A DNA stretch of 64,000 nt from Candidatus Nomurabacteria bacterium (GTDB lineage: Bacteria; Patescibacteriota; Patescibacteriia; HK-STAS-PATE-3), in contig CP060223.1 in NCBI GenBank assembly GCA_023898465.1, forward strand, positions 96,001-160,000, in the 5' to 3' direction. Positions 27,526 through 63,896 of this stretch are shown here, one piece after another. The notes below the pieces were generated by a model. That model made no database searches. It was not told where the DNA came from and saw only the letters and a list, made by a program, of their open reading frames with translations. Each line of letters opens with the position of its first letter. Within the stretch, counting starts at the first letter, position 1. A program made the translations under genes and the position numbers.

Positions 27526-28661
27526 TTATTCGCATTCCGGATCGTCGTAGCGATGTACGATTCCATGAATAACTTGTCCCAGCATGAGTAGGCTAAGTGC
27601 GAGAAGGAAGAAAGTGGCACCAAGTCGTGGAGCAAAAGTTCCTACGAGGATAATAAGCAGTGCGCCACCAAAGCGAATGCCGCGATCGCTTTTTTTATGC
27701 TCAACATCGTGTTGGTCAGGCACCAGAGTCAGCTCTAGTAAGCCATTAAAGAGGAGAGTAATAGCTGCTCCGCCACAGAGGAGCCATATGATTTCGCTGC
27801 GCAGGAGATTAGCCCCATTTGCAATGATGGCTAACATGGCAGCTCCAATTGCGCCAGTGCCGATATGCAAGGGCAAATGTCCATAGCCCCAAGCTGCCTT
27901 AACCCATTCGTTCTGTCTCACTCGGCGTACCGGTATGGTATTGAAGTAGAGCCACCATAATCCAAATGCGAGTAACATTCCTAGACCGCCAATGAGGAGA
28001 GAGTGAGTAGTCATAACAGGAAGGTCAGCAATTTTTTCTGCTGTTGCGATAATGGTCTCACCTAGGACAATAATCACTAATAAACCAAAACGTTCAGGTA
28101 GATGAGAGTTGCTGAAGCGTGGAAGCTTGCTTTGCTCTCCAAAGGTAAGCGCTGGAGTAAACAGGTCGATAGCGAGTCCAAGTCCTCGTAATATAAGTTG
28201 GAGTGGGGCTGGGACAAAGAGTGAAATGGTCCACAGGATAACTGAGGTGCTGAAGCCAATGGAATAGATACCGGTAGTTTTTCGGATTTCTGGATTATGA
28301 TATCCGCCCCGTATCCAAAGGAAGATGAGTACAAGTCGGGCAAGAATATATGAGACCCCGAAGCCAAATGCGGTACTATCGAGTCCATCGCGTGCAAATA
28401 TTGCCAATCCAGCGATCGGCAGCATCATCAGGAAGGTCAGGAGCTTGTGACTCACATCGTCTGTCTCAAAGCGATCGTTGTAGAGCGTGTGTCCAATCCA
28501 AACCCACCAGATTGGGATAAAGAGTAAAACAAAGCGAAGTACGCCGCTCCAGTCTGGCTGGTCAGCGAGAGCATGGATAAGCTCTCTGATTGCCGCAACA
28601 AAAACAAGGTCAAAAAATAGCTCTAATCACGTTGCTCGACGCTCTTGATTTTCATCTTCAT
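27526..28661 (-). pseudogene. ltrA: Low-temperature-requirement LtrA-family membrane protein gene with an apparent 1-nt frameshift near its 5' end.
   Basis: The long frame LELFFDLVFVAAI...FIPIWWVWIGHTLYNDRFETDD...ERFGLLVIIVLGE carries LtrA signatures. It has no in-frame start before an upstream TGA at 28627-28629. The predicted N-terminus MKMKIKSVEQRD sits in the -1 frame starting at 28661. Confidence 0.55.
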
Positions 28662-28807
28662 CACGCCGTAAAACCGGATGTTGCCACCAGTGTTTGTGAG
28701 GATTCCATTCGTGTCCCGTATGCATTGCGCGCCGATTGTAGCACATATTTTTAAGCTTGTCATGGCTGGCCTGAGCGATAAAAATGTGTTAAAGTTGTGA
28801 TGAAAAT

Positions 28808-29194
28808 ATGCCACGAGTCATTCATTTTGAAATTCATGCCAGTGATCCAGAACGAGCTGCGCAGTTTTATGCACGCGTTTTTGATTGGGATATACAGAAG
28901 TGGGATGGTCCAGAAGAGTACTGGCTAGTAAACACCGGTGCAGATACGCAAGCCGGTATCAATGGCGCAATTTTTAGGCGTCAGGGTGAATTAAGCCAGC
29001 ATGATGCGGTGATCGCCTTTGTGTGTACTATTGATGTGCCGAATGTTGATGCGTATATAGAGAAAGTGAAGCAACATGGTGGACATGTCGAATTGCAAAA
29101 AATGGCCGTGCCCGGAGTGGGCTGGATGGCATATTGCAAAGACACCGAAGGAAATATTTTTGGGATGATGCAAGCTGACCCGGAGGCAGTTTAA
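28808..29194 (+). CDS. VOC/glyoxalase-family protein.
   Basis: 128 aa, beta-alpha-beta(3)-like. FYARVFDW...GNIFG. Confidence 0.7.
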   Translation: MPRVIHFEIHASDPERAAQFYARVFDWDIQKWDGPEEYWLVNTGADTQAGINGAIFRRQGELSQHDAVIAFVCTIDVPNVDAYIEKVKQHGGHVELQKMAVPGVGWMAYCKDTEGNIFGMMQADPEAV

Positions 29195-29195
29195 G

Positions 29196-29774
29196 ATGCA
29201 ACACGAACTACTCGATATTATCAATGAAGAGGACGAGGTAATAGGCCAAGCAACTCGGCAAGAGTTGTATGATAAGGGCCTTACTTGTCGCATCGTGCAT
29301 GTGTTTGTGCAAAATAGCCAAGGCCAGTTTGCCATTCAGAAACGCAGTGAAGTGGTGAGCTTTCTCCCGGGCCACTGGAGCTCCTCGGCCAGTGGACATG
29401 TCAAAAAAGGCGAGTCATATGACGAAGCGGCTGCACGTGAACTGCAAGAAGAGTTAGGCATTGAAGCACCTTTAGAAAATGCCTTAACAACTTGGTACAC
29501 CGTGCCAGACCGAAATATCCGCCGTCGTATTGGCGTTTACCTTGCTAAGCACGAGGGACCTTTTGAGCTTGAGGCAATTGAAGTGGCTGAAGTTGTTTGG
29601 CATGAGCCTGAAGAAGTCTTAGCAATGGCCAAGAAAGGCGAGCCATTCCAACCGGAATTGGCAATTAGGAAATCATATTCACCCTATCGAAAGAGTATCT
29701 GGTCATTACATTGCTTTATTGCTCGTAATTGTCAGAAGGCAGGCGAACCACAATTGGACGGGGGAGAAAAATAG
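29196..29774 (+). CDS. NUDIX hydrolase. Its last ~39 aa are specified by the adjacent AT-rich insertion.
   Basis: Nudix box GHVKKGESYDEAAARELQEELGI. Nucleotide identity with the copy at 30595-31061 ends at 29659. Confidence 0.8.
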   Translation: MQHELLDIINEEDEVIGQATRQELYDKGLTCRIVHVFVQNSQGQFAIQKRSEVVSFLPGHWSSSASGHVKKGESYDEAAARELQEELGIEAPLENALTTWYTVPDRNIRRRIGVYLAKHEGPFELEAIEVAEVVWHEPEEVLAMAKKGEPFQPELAIRKSYSPYRKSIWSLHCFIARNCQKAGEPQLDGGEK

Positions 29775-30596
29775 AAGACCAGCTTATTACTTTTGAAGAC
29801 TTCTCGCGTGTAATGATTATGTTTACTGAGCGCGAGACTTGTTCCAGGTTTTACCAGATGCGACTGGATCCACAGAAGAAGAAAGAATTCTATAAGATTC
29901 TTTTAATACCTAAAATGGAAGAATCCGGAAATATTAAAATATTCGGCATGGATTGGCTGAAATTTGCACGATCTTTTAATTTTCACTTGCAGGGGCTGGG
30001 TGTGATGTTATTTTACAATCAAAAACTCATAAAGATAAACGATTGAATATTGATTTTTATCTCCATCAATTCTTTTTAACATTAAACATTCATTAGAGTT
30101 GTTTGTAAAAATGACAATGGAGATATTAGATCAAAAAGTTAAAAGACAACACAATACATTAAGCAATTTAATAATAGTCGAAGGTGTTATAAGGAAGTTG
30201 GATAATATCGTTTGTAGATATTTGGCTTCAAAGCAGACTAAGTAAATCAAAAGGTAAGTATGATACGTATTATCTAGACACATGGAGGAACGGATGGAGG
30301 GAAATTCGAGTGATGGTGGAGTACTACAGCAATTTAAACTTTTGAAAGATCGTGGACTTTCTCAAAAATTATTAAAAGATACTGAGAACACCTTATTTCG
30401 ATATCCTGATTCCAGCATGATAAAGAAGTTGAAGTATAATGAGGTTTTTGCAAAAATTAATATTCTTGACGTTAAAAACTTTAAGAAAGACGTTAATAAT
30501 TCCGGAACACTATTTACAGATCTTTTTCTCATACTTTTATTTTTTCGATACGAGATAGTCGAAGGTGTTGATTAGAGAGTTATTATATAAATATGT

Positions 30597-31110
30597 ATGC
30601 AACATGAACTACTCGATATTATCAACGAAAGGACGAAATGTCAGGCCAAACAACTCGGCAAGAGTTGTATGATAAGGAGCCTTACTTGTCGTATCGTGCA
30701 TGTGTTTGTGCAAAATAGCCAAGGCCAGTTTGCCATTCAGAAACGCAGTGAAGTGGTGAGAGCTTTCTCCCGGGCCACTGGAGCTCCTCGGCCAGTGGAC
30801 AGTCAAAAAGGCGAGTCATATGACGATGCGGCTGCACGTGGAGTGCAAGAAAGAGCTAGGCATTGAAGCACCTTTAGAAAATGCCTTAACAACTTGGTAC
30901 ACCGTGCCAGATCGAGATATTCGTCGTCGTATTGGTGTTTATCTTGCCAAGCACGAGGGACCATTTGAGCTTGAGGCAATTGAAGTGGCCGAAGTTGTTT
31001 GGCATAAGCCCGAAGAAGTCTTAGCAATGGCTAAGAAAGGTGAGCCATTCCAACCAGAATTTCTCGACATGTTTAAGCTTGTTATTGAGAGGGACACCAA
31101 TGAAAATTAA
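30597..31110 (+). pseudogene. Frameshifted second copy of the NUDIX gene.
   Basis: About 93% nt identity to 29194-29659 with several indels (+1, +2, -2), which splits it into ORFs 30597-30866 and 30820-31110. Confidence 0.8.
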
Positions 31111-31750
31111 AAAGTATCTTCATTCCTGTCTCCTCATTGAAGAAAATGGAAAGCGCTTGTTGATTGATCCGGGCAAGTTTTCTTTTGGAGATGAGGGGAT
31201 AAAAGCTGAAGAAGTAGGTGCAGTGGATGCAATACTAATCACGCACGAACATCAGGATCATTACTTTCCCGAAGCACTACGCGCTTTTAAAAACCTAGGC
31301 GATTGCGAGATTATCACCCATGCAGCAATTGGTAAGCTGCTTGATGAGGAAGGAATCGCTCATACACTTCTACAGGATGGTGAAGAAAGGGAGGTGGTTG
31401 GTTTTCATGTAAAGGGCTTTGCACGAAGTCACGGTCCTCTACCTTTACCTGTGCCAGACAACTTTGCATATCTTATTAATAGTAGATTATTGCATCCAGG
31501 TGATTCCTATGAGGCAAGTGATATTAGCTGCGAAGTGCTCGCCTTACCAGTCGTCGCGCCCTGGGCCAAGCTGACCGAAACAGTGGAATATGCAAAAGCG
31601 GTTGGCGCAAAAACAGTTATTCCAATTCACGACGCCTTTCTCAAAGACTTTATGCGTCACGGCGTGTACTACAATGTAGCAAAGATGAAGCTTGAGGAGC
31701 AGCATATTGCTTTTCAGGTTTTAGAAAGCGGCGACGAATTCGAGATCTAA
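31100..31750 (+). CDS. MBL-fold metallo-hydrolase.
   Basis: ILITHEHQDHYF (HxHxDH) motif. Confidence 0.75.
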   Translation: MKIKKYLHSCLLIEENGKRLLIDPGKFSFGDEGIKAEEVGAVDAILITHEHQDHYFPEALRAFKNLGDCEIITHAAIGKLLDEEGIAHTLLQDGEEREVVGFHVKGFARSHGPLPLPVPDNFAYLINSRLLHPGDSYEASDISCEVLALPVVAPWAKLTETVEYAKAVGAKTVIPIHDAFLKDFMRHGVYYNVAKMKLEEQHIAFQVLESGDEFEI

Positions 31751-32043
31751 AATGAGTTAAAAAGACGGCAGTTGAGACAAGCCCAACTGCCGCGTGGACG
31801 CCTTCTCTGTGTTTCAGAGATGGTGTGGACCTGTTTGGTCCAACTCGACTGTAGTACAGTTGAGGGGATTTGTATAGCGGCATTTTTATTAGAAAAAGTC
31901 CCATACCACACTGGAATGTAAGGTATCTTTTTAAGCGGGACAGGAAACGCTGACATTTTTGCTTGACGACTTCCTTCTTAAGGAGTATGTAAAGAAGGCT
32001 AGTTTTTTGTTCTTTGCATTTCAGAGTAACAGGAGGTTGGGGA

Positions 32044-32369
32044 TGCATATATGTGGGGTACGTCCGGCAGCTCAAGTTGTGAGAGAGGCTCCTGGAGCAC
32101 GAGTGCCTGTTGGTCGGAGCGTTTACTACTATTCTCAGCTGAAAGTAGCGGCGCTTTCCTTGGATCCAGGTGCTATGGTCAAGGTTGGTGATGTGATCGA
32201 ATTCGAGGCGAGCAGGAGACGAAGGTTGTGTATTGTGGTTGGAGAAATGGAGGTCAACGGAAGACGTGTCGAGGAAGTTTCAGGCCCTTGCGAGGTCGGT
32301 GTCCAGGTCGGAAGGTGGATTCGCTGGGGTCAGCATCCGATTTACCGTATCGATGCTCCCTCCGCATGA
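32044..32369 (+). CDS. Hypothetical small high-GC protein.
   Basis: CAGGAGG RBS 7 nt upstream of ATG. 58% GC. No confident family. Confidence 0.35.
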
Positions 32370-32446
32370 AGCGCGTACGAGCCGTCAGCATTTTGTTGGC
32401 GGCTTTTTCATTGACTAAGCTTAGGGAAAACTGCTAGCGTGCACAT

Positions 32447-34192
32447 ATGGAAATTTTCTTTCGTGCCCTCAAACAATACAAAAAGATTGCTATTAGCGCG
32501 CTTGTGCTTGCAGCTATTAATCAGGTTTTTTCCTTACTTGATCCCCAGATATTCAGAATCCTAGTTGATCGCTATGCCAGTCGACCAGAGGAATATAGTT
32601 CACCTGACTTTTTCCGAGGAGCTTTCCTGTGGGCGCTCGGCATTATCGGCGTTGCGTTTATTTCTCTAGTCGCGAGAAGCTTCCAGGATTATTACGTCAA
32701 TGTTATTAGTCAGAGAGTAAGTACCAATCTTTACGCACAGAGTGTAGGATATGCCTTTGCATTGCCTTTTGCCGTGTTTGAGGACCAGCGTTCCGGTGAG
32801 CTGCTTCAAAAGATGCAGAAGGCAAAGACCGACATTGAAAAGGTGATTCGTAGTTTTGTAAATGTGGTTTTCTTGTCAGTCATCGGAATGCTCTTTGTAC
32901 TTGTCTATGCCTTTTTTGTGCATTGGCTGGTTGGTTTGGTCTATACGCTCATTATTCCGACGATTGCTTTCTCTGTGTTAACGCTTAGTCGTCGTATTAA
33001 GAAGGCGCAGTCAGCTATTGTGACAGAGACCGCCGCATTATCTGGGTCCACCACGGAAACATTGCGCAATGTTGAGTTAGTAAAGAGCTTGGGATTGGAA
33101 GAGCAAGAAGTGAGTCGATTGAATCAAGTGAATGATCGCATTCTTGATTTGGAGCTTAAAAAAGTGCGCCTCGTCCGAGCGCTGAGTTTTGTGCAAGGCA
33201 CTTTATTGAATGCTTTACGATCCGGACTCATCCTGCTTATGCTTTGGCTTATCTACCAAGGCAACATTTCCATTGGCGAATTTCTAAGTTTATTTATTTA
33301 TTCCTTCTTTGTATTTCAACCGTTGACTGAGCTTGGCACTGTTATAACTGATTTCCAAGAAGCTCGGGCCAGCAGTGAAAAGCTGCAGGAGATTCTAGCC
33401 ATGCCCGAGGCGCCTAAGCCCGAGCAGCCGGTTTCACTGAATGCGCTGCAGTCAATTATTTTTGACAATGTAGTATTTCAATATCAATCTAATAGCGTGA
33501 GTTCAGTCGAGCATATTCACGCGGAGGTTCACTCGGGTGAAACCATTGCTTTTGTCGGTCCGTCTGGCTCGGGTAAGACGACGCTCATGAAATTAGTCTT
33601 GGGTTTATACCAACCAAGCCAAGGACAACTTCGTTATAATGATATACCCGGATCGGCTATTCAGATTGATGAGCTGCGGAAGAAAATTGGTTTTGTCGGG
33701 CAGGAGACGCAACTTTTTGCCGGGACCATCCGTGAGAATTTGCAGTTTGTCCAGCCCGAGGCTGATGAGGTTACGTGTTTGGAGGCGCTTAAAAAAGCCG
33801 CGGCCATGAATATTATTGAGCGAGGCAAGCAAGGGCTAGACACAAAGATCGGCGAAGGTGGTTTGAAACTTTCCGGTGGCGAGCGTCAACGTCTAGCCAT
33901 TGCACGGGCACTGTTGCGTAATCCAGAGCTCCTCATTTTTGATGAAGCTACCAGCAGCCTTGATTCCCTGACTGAAAAAGAAATCACCCAGACTATCCAG
34001 GAGCTCGGAAAAGAAAATAATCAGCGCATGACTTTATTGATTGCGCATCGACTCTCAACAGTTGCTCACGCTGATCGCATTTATGTTTTAGAGAAGGGGA
34101 AGATTGTTGAGCAGGGTAAGCATGAGGAATTGGTCCAAGCTGGCGGATTGTATGCAGCGTTGTGGCGTCAGCAAAGCGGCGCGACTGAATAA
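32447..34192 (+). CDS. ABC transporter, fused permease and ATPase (type I exporter, MsbA-like).
   Basis: Six TM helices followed by Walker A GPSGSGKTT, signature LSGGERQRLAIARAL, and Walker B LLIFDEATSSLD. Confidence 0.9.
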   Translation: MEIFFRALKQYKKIAISALVLAAINQVFSLLDPQIFRILVDRYASRPEEYSSPDFFRGAFLWALGIIGVAFISLVARSFQDYYVNVISQRVSTNLYAQSVGYAFALPFAVFEDQRSGELLQKMQKAKTDIEKVIRSFVNVVFLSVIGMLFVLVYAFFVHWLVGLVYTLIIPTIAFSVLTLSRRIKKAQSAIVTETAALSGSTTETLRNVELVKSLGLEEQEVSRLNQVNDRILDLELKKVRLVRALSFVQGTLLNALRSGLILLMLWLIYQGNISIGEFLSLFIYSFFVFQPLTELGTVITDFQEARASSEKLQEILAMPEAPKPEQPVSLNALQSIIFDNVVFQYQSNSVSSVEHIHAEVHSGETIAFVGPSGSGKTTLMKLVLGLYQPSQGQLRYNDIPGSAIQIDELRKKIGFVGQETQLFAGTIRENLQFVQPEADEVTCLEALKKAAAMNIIERGKQGLDTKIGEGGLKLSGGERQRLAIARALLRNPELLIFDEATSSLDSLTEKEITQTIQELGKENNQRMTLLIAHRLSTVAHADRIYVLEKGKIVEQGKHEELVQAGGLYAALWRQQSGATE

Positions 34193-56886: not shown

Positions 56887-57759
56887 TTGGCTTTTCAGGG
56901 GGAACAACCAGGGGAGAATGACAATACAAAGCTTTTCAATAATGCCCCAGAGCAAGGTAATCAGGTTCCGCCTGAGCAAAGTGGCTCGCGGGGCTTTTTT
57001 ATTGCGTTAATTTCCTTTGGCGCAGTTGGGCTTTTGCTCGGAATTGTGAGCTTGGCAAAGAATATTCAGTCACCTTTTGTACCAAATGCCAACCTCATTG
57101 CGGTGCAGCAGGACACCAATCAAGAAAACATCTCTGATTTGCAGCAAAGAGACACGGATGGAGATGGGTTAAGTGATTACGAAGAACTTTATCAATACAA
57201 CACTAGCCCGTATTTAGCTGATTCTGACTCGGATACCATTGATGATAAGAAAGAAATCGAGAGTGGAAACGATCCGAATTGTCCAAGTGGCCAGGATTGT
57301 ACCGGATTAGGCGTAAATACAAACACGAGTACAGTTGACGATGCATTGGGGCTTACTAATAGCTCCACCAATACATCCGCGACAAATACCAGTACGAGCA
57401 CGAGTGCGGTTGATATGGCACAGTTGCGTGAAGTGTTAAAGGCCTCGGGTGCTCCTGCCTACGTCGTGGATTCAACCGATGATGCTACTTTGCTTGAGCT
57501 TTACAACGAATTAGTAGCTGAGCAGGGTGGTGACTCGCTTGATACCAACTCGACAGATACAAATGCGAGTAACACGTCGACTGTTGATGACGCTACCACC
57601 TTACAACTTCTGCAAAGCTTATCAGCCAGCGAGATACGCGCACTTCTCATTCAAAGTGGCGTTGATCAATCATTAATCGATCAAGTAGACGATTCTGAGC
57701 TGCAGCAAATATTCCTTGATGCAGTGCAATCCGAGTTTTCCTCTGACTCCTCATCATGA
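56887..57759 (+). CDS. Secreted/anchored acidic Ser/Thr/Asp-rich protein with a thrombospondin-type-3-like Ca-binding repeat.
   Basis: TTG start. TM FFIALISFGAVGLLLGIV. DTDGDGLSDYEELYQYNTSPYLADSDSDTIDD. Confidence 0.5.
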   Translation: MAFQGEQPGENDNTKLFNNAPEQGNQVPPEQSGSRGFFIALISFGAVGLLLGIVSLAKNIQSPFVPNANLIAVQQDTNQENISDLQQRDTDGDGLSDYEELYQYNTSPYLADSDSDTIDDKKEIESGNDPNCPSGQDCTGLGVNTNTSTVDDALGLTNSSTNTSATNTSTSTSAVDMAQLREVLKASGAPAYVVDSTDDATLLELYNELVAEQGGDSLDTNSTDTNASNTSTVDDATTLQLLQSLSASEIRALLIQSGVDQSLIDQVDDSELQQIFLDAVQSEFSSDSSS

Positions 57760-60700
57760 TTCTGCCTTCTGAGCAATCAAAGAAGAAAAAGAGCGTGCGA
57801 GCAATCGCTAGTTTTCTGTTGCCAATGGTTTTACTGGTGACAGTGTTGGGAGTTGCCTTACCACGAGAAAGCAAAGCTCAAATTGGCGCAGTTGGCAGTT
57901 TGGCGGGATTTATTTGGAAGGAAGTAAAAGATTCAGCCCGTTATATTGCCACGCAGGCAAAAGCTGCTTTTGAAAAAGCTCAGGATACCAGTTACGCCAT
58001 TGCGTTTAAGAATAGCTTACGAGTTTTCTTAGGTAAGGTGGCAGAAGATACCGCCGTGTGGGTTTCCAGTGCCGGGACGGGCCAAAAGCCGCTCTTCATC
58101 ACTGATCCGCATTATTGGCGAAATTTGACCGATGCGGCTGGCGGCGACTTTTTGGATTCTATTTCCAAAGATGTTTTTGGAGTAAGTCTGTGTGAGCCGC
58201 TCGATGTGCAAAAGAAGGTTCAACTAGAAATTGCCACCCGCAATCTTATCAATCCTTTAAACGTGTGTGAGAACAGTTGTAACACGACATACAACAATAC
58301 AGCCGAGCAGCTAGGGAACATGAAATCGTATCTTGATCTTCAAGAACGTAAATCACAAGCAAGTCCGAATGCGCTTACCTATTGTCCTGATGAAGAGTTT
58401 CTGCTTGGCATTAGCACTCCAGACAATCCGAATGATCCCTCAACCTATGGCACACAGATGTCAGAGCTTGAGTGTTTTCAACTCATCTCAAACAACTACA
58501 ATCGTCGAAGGCAGCAGGCGACTTCAGAATTGACCTCATGTTTGCAAGATTGTAATCGCGGATCTCGTAAGTCATCCTGTACCGCAACCGCAGTATGGGG
58601 AAACATTCGAGACATTCAGGATTTCTCAGTAGAATTTCAAACTTACTTTAAGCCTGAGCAAAATGATATTGGTCAGATTCTTACCCTTTTCGGCTTGACT
58701 CAGCAAGCAGAAGAAGAGGCGAAGATTGCCGAAGAGACAATTCAGAATAGTAAGTTAGGCGCGGTAACTTCAACGCTTCGTACAGACATCCTTACCCCGG
58801 CCAGCTTGGTAGAAGAAAAAGCAGCCCAGCCTATTCGAGAGTCTTCAACAATTGATACTACGCAAACCGGATCCTTACTCGCTGATGTGGGTAATATTTT
58901 TGCGAACACCTTAACGCAGCGTTTAATGGAGAGATTCTTCCGCAGTAAGTGTGGATTAAATCCAAGCGCATGCGAGGGCCCAGGCCAAACAGACTCCAAA
59001 CTCGGCTCCTTACTCTTTAGCACACGGACTCCAAGCGGTCTGGCAGCTGCGCGACTCCAGTTCGCCAGCTTAGCTCGAATCGATTACACAACAGGAGATC
59101 CAGGTCGTTCACAAATAGCAGTATCAAATCAATTAGAAGCGCAAGGTATAATTAATTCCGGTTTCCGACAGGCTATTGATGAGCACATGACAGTGCGAGA
59201 AGCGTTGAACGCCGGCTTGCTAAATGCCAGCGCAACCTTTGGCTACGACGAAACAGACAATGAAGCGGAAAATGGAATTCCATACCGCTCCATCCTTTAT
59301 CTGCGTAAATATCGAGTCGTCCCTGTTGGCTGGGAGTTGGCCGCTGTGTATATCGGTTCAGATGCAGATAGACAGTCACATGGCTTAGGCGAACTCGTCG
59401 ACCTCTATGATTGGTGTGGACAGGACGCTGCACATGGTTTACCAAATCCAGATGATCCAGAGACACCATTGCCTTCACCATTCTGCGGATTGGTTGACCC
59501 GAGTTGGGTATTAAAAGCTCCTGACACGTACTGTCGACGTCAGGGCGCTGGTGATGAAATTATCCAACGTCGCTATGTGTGTGACACTGATACCAATGGC
59601 GATGGTCGAATTAATTGTAGCCTGAGCGATTTGGGTGGAGGGGATATTGGCTCCTGGATTATTTCACGAAATCAAGATACCTGCGTTGATGAGCCTAGCT
59701 GTGTGGCCGAAGATAGTGATGGGAATTGTCTCGCCTATGGATATTGCTATGAAGAAAAGCCGATTTGGCGTTTCGGCGGTGAAACCTGTAACGGGTACTA
59801 TGCTTCTTGTCGATCTTATACAAATTCAAGTGGCATTCAACTCGCTTACTTAAAAGATACCCTTGATGAGGGCGATTGTAATCCAGAGAATGCCGGTTGT
59901 CGCGCGTACTGCAGCGATGGCGAATACAATGCCGTAAATCAGACCTGGAGTTGTCGCTCTGATTCAGGTGATACTATATACTTTGATCGGGACGCGAGCT
60001 CATGTCCAGATGGTGCGGTTGGATGTACTGAATTAATTCGCACCGAAGCTGGATCAAACGTTTTAGCAAACGCTGGATTTGAATACTATACAGGTACCAG
60101 CGATGACGGCACTCGAGATACTTTTGGCTTCTGCAGTAATAATGGCGCTGCCTGTCAAACCAATGGAGACTGTGGACTCGGGGCAAGTTGTGAAGGTTGG
60201 AAAACTGATAACGGTGCCGTCCAACTACAAGCAGTCAGCGATGATGTGAGTGGCGTTGGTTCACCAGACACCATTGCAGTGCAAATGAGCGCCGGGGTTG
60301 GCAAGCTCATTCACGAAGCTGATGCCTATCAAGATTTGAGCGGCATGCAGATGACTTTCTCATACTACGCAAAAGCGCTTGGAGCAAGTTGTAGCGGCAC
60401 CTTTGGCGTACAAAGCGCTGATGCAATTTATGTGCCAGCCGCTGATGAAGAGGGTAGCGCTGAGTACACCGATCTCTGGCAGCAATATGCTGGAGTCTTC
60501 ACCTTCCCAGAATCAGCTTATACTAAGAGTAAGGTGCAGGCGTACATAAATAATCCGGGCTGCGGTATTTTGGTTGACTCAGCTAAATTAGAATTTAGTG
60601 CTGCGCAAACAGTGTACTCGGATTATCAGACGGTGAATGAAATTTCCATGCAAGTTCCACAGACCACTCTGCTGTCCAACGGAGACTTCAGCTTAGATGA

Positions 60701-63700
60701 TGGAACTGACTTCTTTAGCTACCCAGCCCCAGTTGATGGAGATAACTCTACCGCAGATGACAATATTCCAGACGGCTGGACACCACGAGCAGTAGGAAGT
60801 ATCGCAATTGATCGCACGCAAGGCCACTTTGATGATGAATCACTTCGGATTGACGCTAGTGGAGTGCGTAGCTATGCGGGCCAGCTTGTTCCAGTTGAAC
60901 AAGGTAAAACCTATGAAGTGAGCGGTTGGGTAAAGAGTCAATTGACTCCAAGTGGTGGTGATACTCCATTTGGCGCACTCATGACCGAATGTGTGTACAG
61001 TGCCAGCCATCCAAATGCTTACGAAACATTTAATCCTTCGGCTGATGAGCCAAGCGAGTGTCTCTTGTCTAACTTCGAAACCTACATTCGTCCTTCAGTT
61101 GAAGACGGTAACAATTATTATGTAACAACTGGGACGAGCGACTGGACTTATCTCCGCTATACCGTGACCGCAAATAATCCTGATATCGGCTTTATGCGAG
61201 TTGCTTGTACAAATGTGTCTCAGGATACAGGAGGCATTCAAGCTGATGGTTCTGGTACGGTTTGGTGTGATGATGTGAAGGTGGTGGAAACTCCACTAAG
61301 TTGTGACCGCGAAGAAGTTGGTTGTCAAAAATATCGACCAGTTGGGGCTGGTGATGCCGTAAATGGCGTAGTGCGTTCCAGCGACATTTGTCCGCTTGAT
61401 CAGGTTGGTTGCCGCCAATTCCGTGAAATGCCGATTGAACATGTGCCTCAGCGTGATGGCATTGATCCAGTCTACATTATTGAAAGTTCGGGAAACCAAT
61501 GTACAGCTGCCAGTGTGGGTTGTGAGGAATACACTAACCTTGACCTGGGTGAGTCAGGCGGAGAAGCCTTAGCGTACTTCTCACAAATTAAACAGTGTGT
61601 GAAGCCGACAGATCCAAACGCAGGTAACTTCTATACTTGGGAAGGTAGCGAACAAGCTGGTTATAACCTTCGTGCATACAAACTTCTCACGAGTAATGTT
61701 GATCAAGGTCCATGTACAAATCTTTCGGTCGGTACAACTACCAGCGATCCAATCTGTGAAGACGATAGCAATCCAATCGCTGAGTGTAGTGTGGATGACC
61801 TAGGCGTGAACCCTGATTGTACTGAATACTTTAACGATTCCGGCGAAGTCTTTTATCGCTTGAAGAGTCGAACAGTCACCGTCTCCAATGATTGTCACCC
61901 ATTCCGTAATTCAATTGACGCAGCTGCAGGTGAGGATAGTGTGTATCACGTGATTCCGAGCGAAGCAGTCACTTGTTCCGCCGCTGCAGCTGGTTGTCGT
62001 CAGTACAAGGGAACAACTGCAGATAGTAGCCGTACCGTCTACAATGAGAATTTTGAAAACGGCTCGGTGAACGGTTGGAGTGGGGGCGTGACCTATTCAA
62101 ATGAGTCAGTTAACTTAGGCGGTCACTCCATGCGCACGAGCGACGACACTCTTTTCTCAATCGATCTCTCAAACACCATTACTAACGGCCGAACCTACAG
62201 TATTCAGTTCTCCTATAAGGCTCGGCAGACCGGTGACCTAGCCTTTCAAATTCGCGATGAGCTAGGCGAGAGCTTTGGCAGCACGGTAGCTATTCGGCCG
62301 GGTGAAGAATGGGCGCAGTATGAGCTCGGACCAGTCTTTGTGAATTCAACCGGCGACCCGACCGAGTTTATCTTAGAATTTACCACTCCTTCAAGCCTAC
62401 CAGGCGGGTGGATCGATAATATTAAATTACGCGAATCAGTTGACAGTATTTATCGTATCAAGGGTACGACCTCGTCCTGTGATCCAGCAAATGCCGGATG
62501 TCGCCTCTATGTTGATAGCGCAAATAGCCCGGTGGCAGTTACCTCATTTAGTCATCTCTGCTCTGATCGGGCAGTCGGCTGTGAGGCAATGACAGTGACG
62601 CAAAATTCAGATTATCCTTTTGTGCAGGATGTACAAGATAATCCTGATAAGTTTATTCAAGGTGATCTGACTCTCGCGTATGTAAACTCCTCAAGCGCTT
62701 ATTGTCGGGCAGAGTACCAGGGCTGTACTGAGTATGGCGTTGCTTCCTATGATCAAAATAATGAAGTACTTGCATGGTCAAGCACGAATTTGATTAATGA
62801 TCCAGACACTTATCCGGTAGCACTTTGTCATCCGAGTCAGAATCGCTGTGAAGAGTACACCGAGAGTATTAGTGGCAGTAAGGCCTATTTCCGCGATCCA
62901 GGCAATCAAACCTGTGAATATCGTGAATCAGCTGCCTATGCTGGATTATTAGTAGACGGTTGGTTTATCACGGGCACAAATGAGCCATGTCCATCACAGT
63001 CGTTGACTTGCTTCGGCGGCACTCTGGCTGGTGAACCGTGTATGACGTCGGATCAGCAGCAAGCTTGTCTAAACAATAATGGCTACTGTATCGCCTATCC
63101 ATTAGACGGAGAAGTGAAAGAGGTAAATCTTATCTGTGGTTCAACCTGTTCAACTGGTGGATCAGTTGGTCAGGCTTGTGTGAATAATGGTCAATGCTCG
63201 AATGTGTGTGTAGGCGGCACGAATGCTGGTGCATCTTGTCTACGCAATGATGATTGTGGTGGAGGTGGTACCTGTGAGATAGGGCAGTGCGGTGATGGTG
63301 GTGTGCGGCCTTTCTGTGATGGTCGTCAAACCGGATCAACTCGACAAGATCAGGAAAATTGTTTGGCTGATGATGGGCTCTGTACGGCCATTCCTCAGGT
63401 AGGTCAGCCAGGGCGAACCTGTCAGGGTGGTCCAAACGACGGCCTGTCTTGTGCCAATGATGCATACTGTTCCAGTGTTTGTGCTGGTGGTACAAATGCT
63501 GATAACGCTTGCTTTAACGATAGCGATTGTCCAGGGAGTACCTGTGGCGTGGAAGCGAGTTGTGCAAATTACTGGGTTGGCACCTGCGAGCCGGCCGCTG
63601 CGGGATGTACGGAATTCCGTGACCCTCTTGATCCGCCGCAACAAGGAGCCTATCCAAATGGTTGTCAGGTGAATTGTACGCTGGCCACTGACCGTAATGA

Positions 63701-63896
63701 TAATCTCATTGAGGTAGATGCTGAGTGTCGACCTGGCTCAACAGCAGCGTCACAACCTGGCTGTCAGCCTTACTACATCTTGCGGCAAAGTATTACTTCG
63801 CAAGTTTCCGAATGTAATTCAACTATTGATTTCACTACCGGGTGTCAGCCATTCTATGACACCGCTAATCCAAATGCTAATTTTATAGGGGGTTAA
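57756..63896 (+). CDS. Giant (2046 aa) secreted Cys-rich protein with a reiterated C-x4-GC-x2-[YF] motif and at least two CBM/galactose-binding-like beta-sandwich domains.
   Basis: Signal/TM at the N-terminus. More than 10 copies of the motif (CDREEVGCQKY, CPLDQVGCRQF, CTAASVGCEEY, CSAAAAGCRQY, CDPANAGCRLY, CSDRAVGCEAM, CPDGAVGCTEL, CNPENAGCRAY...). CBM-like segments around nt 60050-60900 and 62040-62430. Cys-dense C-terminal 350 aa. Confidence 0.85.
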   Translation: MILPSEQSKKKKSVRAIASFLLPMVLLVTVLGVALPRESKAQIGAVGSLAGFIWKEVKDSARYIATQAKAAFEKAQDTSYAIAFKNSLRVFLGKVAEDTAVWVSSAGTGQKPLFITDPHYWRNLTDAAGGDFLDSISKDVFGVSLCEPLDVQKKVQLEIATRNLINPLNVCENSCNTTYNNTAEQLGNMKSYLDLQERKSQASPNALTYCPDEEFLLGISTPDNPNDPSTYGTQMSELECFQLISNNYNRRRQQATSELTSCLQDCNRGSRKSSCTATAVWGNIRDIQDFSVEFQTYFKPEQNDIGQILTLFGLTQQAEEEAKIAEETIQNSKLGAVTSTLRTDILTPASLVEEKAAQPIRESSTIDTTQTGSLLADVGNIFANTLTQRLMERFFRSKCGLNPSACEGPGQTDSKLGSLLFSTRTPSGLAAARLQFASLARIDYTTGDPGRSQIAVSNQLEAQGIINSGFRQAIDEHMTVREALNAGLLNASATFGYDETDNEAENGIPYRSILYLRKYRVVPVGWELAAVYIGSDADRQSHGLGELVDLYDWCGQDAAHGLPNPDDPETPLPSPFCGLVDPSWVLKAPDTYCRRQGAGDEIIQRRYVCDTDTNGDGRINCSLSDLGGGDIGSWIISRNQDTCVDEPSCVAEDSDGNCLAYGYCYEEKPIWRFGGETCNGYYASCRSYTNSSGIQLAYLKDTLDEGDCNPENAGCRAYCSDGEYNAVNQTWSCRSDSGDTIYFDRDASSCPDGAVGCTELIRTEAGSNVLANAGFEYYTGTSDDGTRDTFGFCSNNGAACQTNGDCGLGASCEGWKTDNGAVQLQAVSDDVSGVGSPDTIAVQMSAGVGKLIHEADAYQDLSGMQMTFSYYAKALGASCSGTFGVQSADAIYVPAADEEGSAEYTDLWQQYAGVFTFPESAYTKSKVQAYINNPGCGILVDSAKLEFSAAQTVYSDYQTVNEISMQVPQTTLLSNGDFSLDDGTDFFSYPAPVDGDNSTADDNIPDGWTPRAVGSIAIDRTQGHFDDESLRIDASGVRSYAGQLVPVEQGKTYEVSGWVKSQLTPSGGDTPFGALMTECVYSASHPNAYETFNPSADEPSECLLSNFETYIRPSVEDGNNYYVTTGTSDWTYLRYTVTANNPDIGFMRVACTNVSQDTGGIQADGSGTVWCDDVKVVETPLSCDREEVGCQKYRPVGAGDAVNGVVRSSDICPLDQVGCRQFREMPIEHVPQRDGIDPVYIIESSGNQCTAASVGCEEYTNLDLGESGGEALAYFSQIKQCVKPTDPNAGNFYTWEGSEQAGYNLRAYKLLTSNVDQGPCTNLSVGTTTSDPICEDDSNPIAECSVDDLGVNPDCTEYFNDSGEVFYRLKSRTVTVSNDCHPFRNSIDAAAGEDSVYHVIPSEAVTCSAAAAGCRQYKGTTADSSRTVYNENFENGSVNGWSGGVTYSNESVNLGGHSMRTSDDTLFSIDLSNTITNGRTYSIQFSYKARQTGDLAFQIRDELGESFGSTVAIRPGEEWAQYELGPVFVNSTGDPTEFILEFTTPSSLPGGWIDNIKLRESVDSIYRIKGTTSSCDPANAGCRLYVDSANSPVAVTSFSHLCSDRAVGCEAMTVTQNSDYPFVQDVQDNPDKFIQGDLTLAYVNSSSAYCRAEYQGCTEYGVASYDQNNEVLAWSSTNLINDPDTYPVALCHPSQNRCEEYTESISGSKAYFRDPGNQTCEYRESAAYAGLLVDGWFITGTNEPCPSQSLTCFGGTLAGEPCMTSDQQQACLNNNGYCIAYPLDGEVKEVNLICGSTCSTGGSVGQACVNNGQCSNVCVGGTNAGASCLRNDDCGGGGTCEIGQCGDGGVRPFCDGRQTGSTRQDQENCLADDGLCTAIPQVGQPGRTCQGGPNDGLSCANDAYCSSVCAGGTNADNACFNDSDCPGSTCGVEASCANYWVGTCEPAAAGCTEFRDPLDPPQQGAYPNGCQVNCTLATDRNDNLIEVDAECRPGSTAASQPGCQPYYILRQSITSQVSECNSTIDFTTGCQPFYDTANPNANFIGG

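Follow-up and report, generated by a model that had tools for sequence, protein, structure and literature searches.

How did a NUDIX gene come to lie twice, head to tail, on the two sides of an AT-rich spacer? The question is raised by a 64-kb stretch (here called the window; positions are counted from its first nucleotide) of a 1.08-Mb contig which belongs to a metagenome-assembled genome (MAG) of "Candidatus Nomurabacteria". The first-pass annotation, made from the letters of the window, had suggested an insertion of foreign DNA with duplication of the target gene, resulting in a chimeric NUDIX enzyme and a decaying second copy. Comparison with related contigs points elsewhere: the spacer consists of genes which are resident in a close relative, and there is, in our estimate, about an even chance that the window carries a rearranged native locus, a recombinant of a long and a short haplotype, with frameshifts which are mostly errors of the consensus. 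The event as such is a local rearrangement, i.e., a segmental duplication together with a gene fusion, at a structurally polymorphic locus; events of this kind are well known.

The repeated NUDIX gene and the origin of its spacer

Copy 1 of the gene, here designated NUDIX-B, is located at 29196–29659 (all features are on the forward strand unless stated otherwise). It comprises nucleotides (nt) 1–464, corresponding to amino acids (aa) 1–155, and contains, according to Pfam family PF00293 and alignments, a complete NUDIX domain with the Nudix box and no insertions or deletions (indels). Copy 2 (30597–31110; repeat-homologous part 30597–31061) is of full length and the positional orthologue of NUDIX-B in the related contigs L001 and L066 described below; its stop overlaps the start of the following MBL-fold hydrolase gene. 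Two head-to-tail segments of about 93% identity were thus confirmed by alignments, with the ends proposed earlier; the starts had been placed at 29194 and 30595. Homology between the copies, which is far above chance, runs from the exact ATG to ...CCAACC(G/A)GAATT, and the copy starts are 1400–1403 nt apart. The differences amount to 30 substitutions, 19 of them in third codon positions, and five or six indel events in copy 2 (-1, +1, +2, -2, +1; previously read as +1, +2 and -2), all within its first ~255 nt. That copy 2, as assembled, is frameshifted and keeps its native C-terminus had been recognized correctly. In the source record copy 1 is annotated as USN53647.1 and the 96-aa open reading frame (ORF) at the tail of copy 2 (30820–31110) as USN53648.1.

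Short-read contigs from Logan, i.e., k = 31 de Bruijn-graph contigs in which each 31-mer is present once, were available for comparison. L001 (SRR32105342), from a more distant relative, was reached by homology search with NUDIX-B. It has the order VOC – NUDIX-A (195 aa) – NUDIX-B – MBL, where VOC is a glyoxalase-family gene and NUDIX-A a different NUDIX gene; the gap between NUDIX-A and NUDIX-B is only ~70 nt. L066 was found via P0008, the closest other member of the NUDIX-A family, and originates from the same sample (SRR12358676) as a further contig, L067. It contains the 3' end of VOC, an intergenic region of ~80 nt, NUDIX-A (192 aa), a gene for 219 aa here called ORF219, an intergenic region of 21 nt, and the first 60 nt of NUDIX-B; NUDIX-A and ORF219 (31% GC) are both intact. 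L066 is colinear with positions 29657–30656 of the window and, past the junction, nearly identical to it, and the 200 nt upstream of copy 2 are identical in it.

By this comparison the spacer (29660–30596) could be assigned. Its length is 937 nt rather than the 936 nt first given, and it is AT-rich as claimed, with 32.7% GC against 47.9% in the window (39.8% in the first 246 nt, 30.7% in the remainder). The first part, at 29660–29905, is a remnant of NUDIX-A, a gene of an ADP-ribose-pyrophosphatase-like family, and represents its 3' ~45%, as determined by BLASTP against NUDIX-A of L001, tblastn, and base-by-base comparison with L066. The remnant begins at nt ~315 (codon ~105), downstream of the Nudix box of that gene, which is thus missing, and carries seven indel events, among them a patch of -5. 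The C-terminal part of NUDIX-A of L001 is matched by the residues newly acquired by copy 1 at its C-terminus and by the next ORF (BLASTP, E = 1e-17 and 1e-12). The NUDIX-A family, with proteins of ~190 aa, is large and found in Patescibacteria (689 matches); a second copy of NUDIX-A was not detected in the 64-kb window by tblastn.

The remainder is mostly ORF219 (29915–30575), an AT-rich orphan gene which was recovered by tblastn at 30054–30572 (E = 4e-83) and as pieces in other frames. In the window it is split by six indel events (+1, -1, +2, -1, +1, -1), while isolated substitutions against the intact copy in L066 number only four, all of them A<->G. The small ORFs of the spacer number three instead of two (29729–30046, 105 aa; 30099–30245, 48 aa; 30282–30575, 97 aa). 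A 15-nt direct repeat, ATAGTCGAAGGTGTT, does exist: its first copy (30174–30188) lies inside the coding sequence of ORF219, its second one (30555–30569, previously placed at about 30558) at the C-terminus, and each encodes IVEGV in frame. Since both copies belong to the reading frame of ORF219 and are present also in L066, the repeat was rejected as a target-site duplication or att site.

The ORF219 family has three members among 1.84 billion representatives, with a full-length alignment containing 34 invariant columns, and it is genuine, but very rare. For ORF219 itself (positions 706–1365 of L066), two distant homologues only, with 41% and 31% identity, were found; conserved motifs are AWDWL, NIKHALE, FRYPD, DVKxFKKD and ILLFF. 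One of the homologues, P0129, weakly matches BrxB of PADLOC (E = 2e-5), ORF219 does not. The start of ORF219 is tightly coupled to the stop of NUDIX-A (TAAAATG).

The NUDIX-A and ORF219 sequences of the spacer thus occur as intact genes, in the same order and position, in L066. The first-pass annotation had itself named a match to ordinary intergenic sequence of the host as the result which would speak against an insertion; since the spacer is colinear with intact resident genes of L066, i.e., with ordinary sequence of the host lineage, the model of a foreign insertion fails by its own test. The proposed search for a phage or plasmid origin by blastn yielded no match in phage and plasmid collections, and the ORF219 family is encoded by no viral contig. 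Pfam, PHROG, PADLOC and NCBIfam gave no matches to the spacer ORFs or to intact ORF219, and no recombinase was found. Neither was there an empty site, as a mobile insertion would leave it in relatives, the segment being resident in L066 and NUDIX-A also in L001, nor did the spacer contain an integrase, a transposase or another mobility function, or ends defined by terminal repeats or att sites. Prophages or islands which integrate in tRNA genes or gene ends and duplicate their target resemble the locus insofar as partial gene copies, one of them with a new end, flank an AT-rich segment; here, in contrast, an integrase is lacking, and so are att-like ends, as the 15-nt repeat lies within a coding sequence; relatives possess the segment as resident DNA, it is the 5' 464 nt which are duplicated, and the copies show deep synonymous divergence. 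An older horizontal acquisition of ORF219 by this sub-lineage may have taken place, because the gene is AT-rich and absent from the more distant L001.

The only point which is not colinear with L066, L001 and copy 2 is the join 29659|29660. At this novel junction (29657–29667) nt 464 of NUDIX-B meets nt ~315 (codon ~105) of NUDIX-A, with a microhomology of 3 nt, ATT. A 1-nt deletion 8 nt past the junction (TTATGG->TTAGG, 29667) brings the fusion into the frame of NUDIX-A. As assembled, the chimeric ORF (29196–29774) encodes 192 aa, i.e., residues 1–155 of NUDIX-B and 37 non-native residues from the NUDIX-A remnant; the new C-terminus had been noted, with 39 aa. Its stop codon TAG (29772–29774) is created by a difference of A6->A5 at ~29766. 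A head-to-tail unit of 1400–1403 nt with exactly one novel join-point is what a tandem segmental duplication produces. The origin of both copies from a single template, which would also be expected, was not found.

This latter result comes from the 3' halves of the copies (alignment columns 256–462), where 13 synonymous and two non-synonymous differences were counted, with a synonymous divergence (dS) of 0.35, a non-synonymous divergence (dN) of 0.013, and dN/dS = 0.036. This depth nearly matches that between copy 1 and its orthologue in L001 (dS = 0.47), and with NUDIX-B of L001 as outgroup, derived changes are present in both copies. Recent duplication in situ followed by decay, as proposed earlier, therefore does not hold: the 3' halves differ almost only synonymously, the frameshifts are confined to one block, and dN/dS, suggested then as a check, speaks for old alleles and not for a fresh duplicate. 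The deep synonymous divergence argues that two long-separated functional alleles were brought together; the 3' halves are old, different alleles under selection. In their 5' parts the copies are essentially the same, apart from the noise described below; at column 29, copy 2 and L066 have C and copy 1 has a private T. A diversity-generating retroelement with template and variable repeats was ruled out, since the differences show no specificity for adenine (C>T 10, T>C 6, G>A 5, among others).

Long and short haplotypes of the locus

Where could two alleles have come from? The ends of L066 are informative in this respect. Its first 30 nt are identical to 29149–29178 of the window, the next base being C in the window and T in L066; its last 30 nt are identical to 29226–29255 in copy 1, and the base before them differs, copy 1 having its private T there. 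Both ends thus stop exactly 30 nt (k-1) past bases which differ from the path VOC|copy 1 of the window. Therefore L066 is the long branch of a graph bubble, the other branch of which is compatible with a direct path from VOC to NUDIX-B, the short haplotype; 29149–29178 is the branch node from which the long and short paths depart. L067 is identical to the window over 1597 of 1597 nt (30882–32478). Its first 30 nt occur in both copies (at 29480 and 30882), and base 31 is the variant of copy 2; L067 thus confirms the 3' half of copy 2, every private variant included, as well as MBL and the sequence downstream of it. The end points of the short-read contigs imply the coexistence in nature of a long form (VOC – NUDIX-A – ORF219 – NUDIX-B – MBL) and a short one (VOC|NUDIX-B|MBL). 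The short type is represented in the window by the end of VOC, the 5' part of copy 1 (with T) and the 3' part of copy 2 with MBL, and the long type by the NUDIX-A remnant, ORF219, the intergenic region and the 5' part of copy 2 (with C in column 29). These allele assignments fit a composite of both forms.

Accompanying observations concern the limits of the variable region. The last six codons of VOC (29179–29194) show four differences to L066, all synonymous (including TAA versus TGA), right after the 30 identical bases, and these resemble a haplotype boundary produced by recombination. L067 ends 30 nt into an ABC-transporter gene starting at 32447 (window 32449–32478); a further branch node of the graph may lie here, which would place the right-hand limit of the haplotype-variable region ~3.3 kb from 29179.

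The following course is proposed. The ancestral arrangement would be the long form, with the short form existing alongside. With initials for the genes (O, ORF219; igr, intergenic region), V–A–O–B–M would be changed in the window to V|B(1-464)::A(315-end)–O–igr–B–M. Within NUDIX-B, a unit of ~1401 nt would have been added, consisting of the 3' part of NUDIX-B up to nt 464 joined to NUDIX-A from nt ~315, ORF219, the intergenic region, and the 5' part of NUDIX-B. Formally, this would be a tandem segmental duplication with one illegitimate junction, by which the catalytic domain of NUDIX-B became connected to the C-terminal part of NUDIX-A. Since the 3' alleles are different and old and the 5' part is shared, the unit was most likely introduced by recombination between the long and the short haplotype, and not copied within one genome. 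As a possible route, a fragment of the long form, circularised or duplicated and bearing the junction, would have integrated homologously within the 5' part of NUDIX-B which is shared. Provided that the frameshifts are errors, the real molecule would encode an intact ORF219, an intact native NUDIX-B and, in addition, the chimera of both NUDIX genes. That a real recombinant of this type existed, probably as a minority or unstable form, has in our opinion as much for it as against it; it becomes rather probable when the variants with real decay or with a repair scar, which are discussed below, are included.

Parallels are known. Homology-facilitated illegitimate recombination, or Campbell-type integration of small circles, occurs in the exchange of DNA between related strains. 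As in such cases, the identical 5' part of NUDIX-B would serve as the homologous anchor in which one side of the incoming DNA is resolved, the sole non-homologous join has a microhomology of few bases, and the donor segment is ~99.5% identical in substitutions to a co-occurring haplotype, L066. A chimeric gene at the classical bacterial duplication join-point also arises when illegitimate (microhomology) recombination produces a tandem segmental duplication. Similar features are the head-to-tail unit of ~1401 nt, a single novel join-point with 3-nt microhomology and the in-frame fusion of two genes; the repeat could also collapse to a single intact gene by homologous recombination. In contrast to the classical situation, the copies in the window are not near-identical and the 3' halves are old alleles (dS 0.35), therefore two haplotypes must have contributed; moreover, the left end of copy 1 adjoins VOC as in the short haplotype, and not as it would after duplication of the long form alone.

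Several points weigh against the recombinant. The junction of NUDIX-B with NUDIX-A is present in no independent data, and the join-point is neither present in L066 and L067 nor needed to explain them. L066 is unbroken where a path through the junction would merge and also at the start of copy 2; therefore the junction would be absent or rare in that sample. Among ~15 billion proteins searched, no other assembly encodes the chimera. The recombination route, in contrast to the known examples of homology-facilitated integration, is inferred from allele patterns only. The 3' 150–210 nt of copy 1, which are part of the extra unit, are clean, an outcome with P = 0.04–0.09 if read support was uniformly low. 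Finally, short reads of the long haplotype, if they were at the disposal of the assemblers, should have polished the region of frameshifts.

Further searches provided information on the distribution. Representative genomes of GTDB contained only distant relatives of the MBL protein (<=43% identity), without synteny; therefore the arrangement is specific to a narrow lineage. Scans of JGI metagenomes with a 29-mer from ORF219 and a 29-mer from NUDIX-B gave no match. Exact look-ups of the products of VOC, LtrA, DUF2142, the ABC transporter and the frameshifted 97-aa and 89-aa fragments also remained without match, thus the left side of the locus was not recovered from short-read contigs.

Some properties of L001 deserve mention. 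NUDIX-B of the window and of L001 (1054–1561) share 86–88% nt identity (dS 0.47); the flanks (window 28903–29194 and 31100–31750), with VOC and MBL, are only 73% identical, the dS of MBL being 1.7, and NUDIX-A of L001 and L066 are 69% identical. For NUDIX-B, exchange between lineages seems to be more recent than for the genes beside it; the NUDIX-B alleles are mosaic and closer across lineages than the flanking genes, which suggests exchange at the level of single genes. In L001 NUDIX-B (1009–1561) is independently broken, with AAG in place of the start codon ATG and with 2 nt deleted near position 1160; the product called there has 145 aa and starts in the wrong frame. The gene thus appears to be dispensable or recurrently lost.

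The block of frameshifts and the competing explanations

All 19 indel events of the locus, together with substitutions which are random with respect to codon position, fall into one contiguous tract of ~1.2 kb (29660–30856, without strand), here called the noisy block. About 12 are deletions and seven are insertions, and they stand against 23 substitutions. Compared with L066, the NUDIX-A remnant and ORF219 contain 13 indel events, one messy substitution patch and four isolated substitutions; in the first 255 nt of copy 2, compared with copy 1, five or six indel events were counted, along with 13 substitutions which are random as to codon position and include a messy patch. Altogether there are three messy multi-base patches, and several indels lie outside of repeats (TTATGG->TTAGG, AAGGGCC->AAGGAGCC, GCGAACT->GCGAGACT). 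The natural pseudogene of NUDIX-B in L001 has two indels versus 55 substitutions; the indel:substitution ratio of the noisy block is ~23-fold higher (Fisher p = 5e-7). When all natural comparisons are pooled, the numbers are four versus 487 (p = 9e-20). The spectrum of neutral decay, with many more substitutions than indels and indels mostly in repeats, was thus not found. Not one indel is present in the 464 nt of copy 1 (P = 6e-4 at the rate of the noisy block). The block extends from the junction to 30856, 26 nt short of the stretch confirmed by L067, which begins at 30882. In the remaining window, 91% of which is covered by long ORFs, there was no evidence for frameshifts; five to eight pairs of overlapping ORFs on the same strand, considered as candidates, proved to be separate genes.

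Because of this error-like ratio of indels to substitutions, the clean surroundings and the clean copy 1, uncorrected consensus error in a segment covered by few reads was judged the most likely cause of the indels, and it is probably the correct one; real decay would be an improbable cause, and a scar of error-prone repair a very improbable one. A locally unpolished long-read consensus, or a long-read bridge, arises at strain-variable repeated loci of metagenome assemblies. The locus shares with such cases the sharp edges of the block, ~1.6% indels of both signs and messy patches, flanks which match short-read contigs perfectly, and a tangle in the graph of the short-read data; it differs in that part of the extra unit, the 3' end of copy 1, is clean. 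The few-read stretch could stem, for example, from an unstable or minority structural variant or from a long-read bridge over the tangled region.

Could the junction itself be an artefact of the assembly? The strain would then really possess the short form, and the 1401-nt unit with its junction would derive from a chimeric molecule or read, e.g., from amplification or a long-read chimera, formed in a community which also holds the long haplotype, with a near-raw consensus being kept. The sample which holds the exact strain sequence (L067, 100% over 1597 nt) supports the short and the long paths and gives no sign of the junction; the error-like block begins 8 nt after the junction, and the two haplotypes explain every segment of the window path except the junction. 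On the other hand, a chimera would have to connect two equally oriented points of one locus over a distance of 1.4 kb and subsequently be selected as the backbone of the assembly, which would be a coincidence; the 3' part of copy 1 is clean up to the junction and a coherent, selected allele, and standard assemblers make no non-homologous joins from two colinear haplotypes. An artefact is therefore regarded as unlikely, though it has to be taken seriously.

Appreciably less credible is a composite which exists exactly as assembled, with copy 1 as a functional NUDIX gene. The NUDIX-A remnant, ORF219 and the 5' half of copy 2 would then be pseudogenes with slippage indels, and the 3' part of copy 2 would be kept as the 96-aa ORF (30820–31110), preserving the translational coupling to MBL. 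In agreement with this, the edges of the noisy block match functional edges: it starts right after the intact NUDIX domain of copy 1, and the last indel (+1 at 30850) sets ATG 30820 in frame with the tail of NUDIX-B. Five or six indels are situated in runs of 5–6 A or T, and pseudogenes do occur here, as shown by NUDIX-B of L001 (lost ATG and 2-nt deletion) and by the in-frame TGA of the nearby LtrA gene. The 19:23 ratio given above is difficult to reconcile with decay. Only four isolated substitutions but six indel events between ORF219 and L066 would leave too little time for it; many indels are outside of repeats (e.g., GGG->GGAG), messy patches are present, and the frameshifted products were found in no other assembly by exact look-ups.

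The indel-rich tract of 1.2 kb might conceivably also be real for another reason, namely as the scar of an error-prone, template-switching repair synthesis which created the duplication, similar to microhomology-mediated break-induced replication (MMBIR) or gap filling by a translesion polymerase. In such a course, which we hold to be very improbable, a broken end at nt 464 of NUDIX-B would prime on the ATT microhomology of NUDIX-A; low-fidelity copying of the NUDIX-A 3' part, ORF219 and the NUDIX-B 5' part would follow, and homology within NUDIX-B would permit the resolution. The onset of the noise at the junction, its end within copy 2 and the clean state of both flanks would thereby be accounted for.

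Insertion of an AT-rich phage, plasmid or other mobile element with duplication of the target gene has a practically negligible probability, in spite of the decrease of GC to ~31% across ORF219 and the absence of this gene from L001, since the spacer is resident and without mobile-element signature, its 15-nt repeat is shared coding sequence, and the supposed duplication of the target comprises 464 nt, for which the two copies represent different alleles.

The locus is thus mainly a caution: an apparent insertion in a MAG turned out to consist of resident genes which are rearranged at a locus varying between strains, with a probable low-quality consensus on top. Labels such as pseudogene for copy 2, ORF219 and the NUDIX-A remnant, or bona fide enzyme for the 192-aa product, may be wrong. 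The VOC–NUDIX–MBL cluster of this Nomurabacteria lineage has at least two structural haplotypes which co-occur in one community. If the composite is real, it would be a clean natural fusion of two different NUDIX genes via one microhomology join; if the repair scar is true, a natural record of mutagenic break repair in the genome of an uncultured member of the Patescibacteria.

Protein families and neighbouring genes

Copy 1 belongs to the NUDIX superfamily (PF00293, E = 2.3e-18, 66.9 bits versus a cut-off of 21.1, residues 32–154), and the Nudix box (GX5EX7REUXEEXGU) is legible in its translation as GHVKKGESYDEAAARELQEELGI. Best matches in NCBIfam were YfcD for NUDIX-B and NudE for NUDIX-A, both under the curated equivalog cut-offs; NUDIX-B reached 97.8 versus 152 bits with the YfcD equivalog NF011922 and was also below the cut-offs for type 1 isopentenyl-diphosphate isomerase (IDI; NF002995, 62.8 versus 127 bits; TIGR02150, 44.8 versus 105.8 bits). 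By these scores NUDIX-B is YfcD-like only. With the YfcD/IDI-like and the NudE/ADP-ribose-pyrophosphatase-like families, NUDIX-B and NUDIX-A have the NUDIX fold in common, and NUDIX-B has the canonical Nudix box. It is of a very rare type, with six matches in 5.8 billion clusters.

The VOC gene (28808–29194; PF00903, E = 4e-7) has its stop codon TAA 1 nt ahead of the ATG of copy 1, and its product is 80% identical in aa to the incomplete VOC of L001. Within its 3' end a Shine-Dalgarno-like motif, GGAGG, is present at 29181–29185; a CCG variant of the window in the end of VOC produces this motif 10 nt 5' of the ATG of copy 1. On the other side, the MBL-fold hydrolase gene (31100–31750; PF13483, E = 7e-22) overlaps with its start the end of NUDIX-B in a translational manner. 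A protein 100% identical to it, P0130, is also present in Logan. Precomputed Pfam results include, besides Lactamase_B families, a weak label Anti-Pycsar_Apyc1 (PF23023), and both NUDIX proteins weakly match the PADLOC candidate PDC-S07. A role of the VOC–NUDIX–MBL cluster in nucleotide signals or anti-defence is conceivable from these matches. An Rfam scan of 28000–32600 (E <= 0.1) found no RNA elements, and promoter and terminator sites were no more numerous than in shuffled sequence.

About 570 nt upstream of the locus, a gene of the LtrA family (minus strand, 27526 to ~28740) contains an in-frame TGA (28627–28629). It falls on a conserved Trp of the N-terminal motif (...ERRAT*LELFFDLVFVAAI...), corresponding to a change TGG->TGA, and is a pseudogene mutation, a polymorphism or a base error. 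The LtrA ORF of annotated length has 309 aa and misses ~60 N-terminal positions of the profile. At the end of the window (57756–63896) a very large ORF of 2046 aa is situated.

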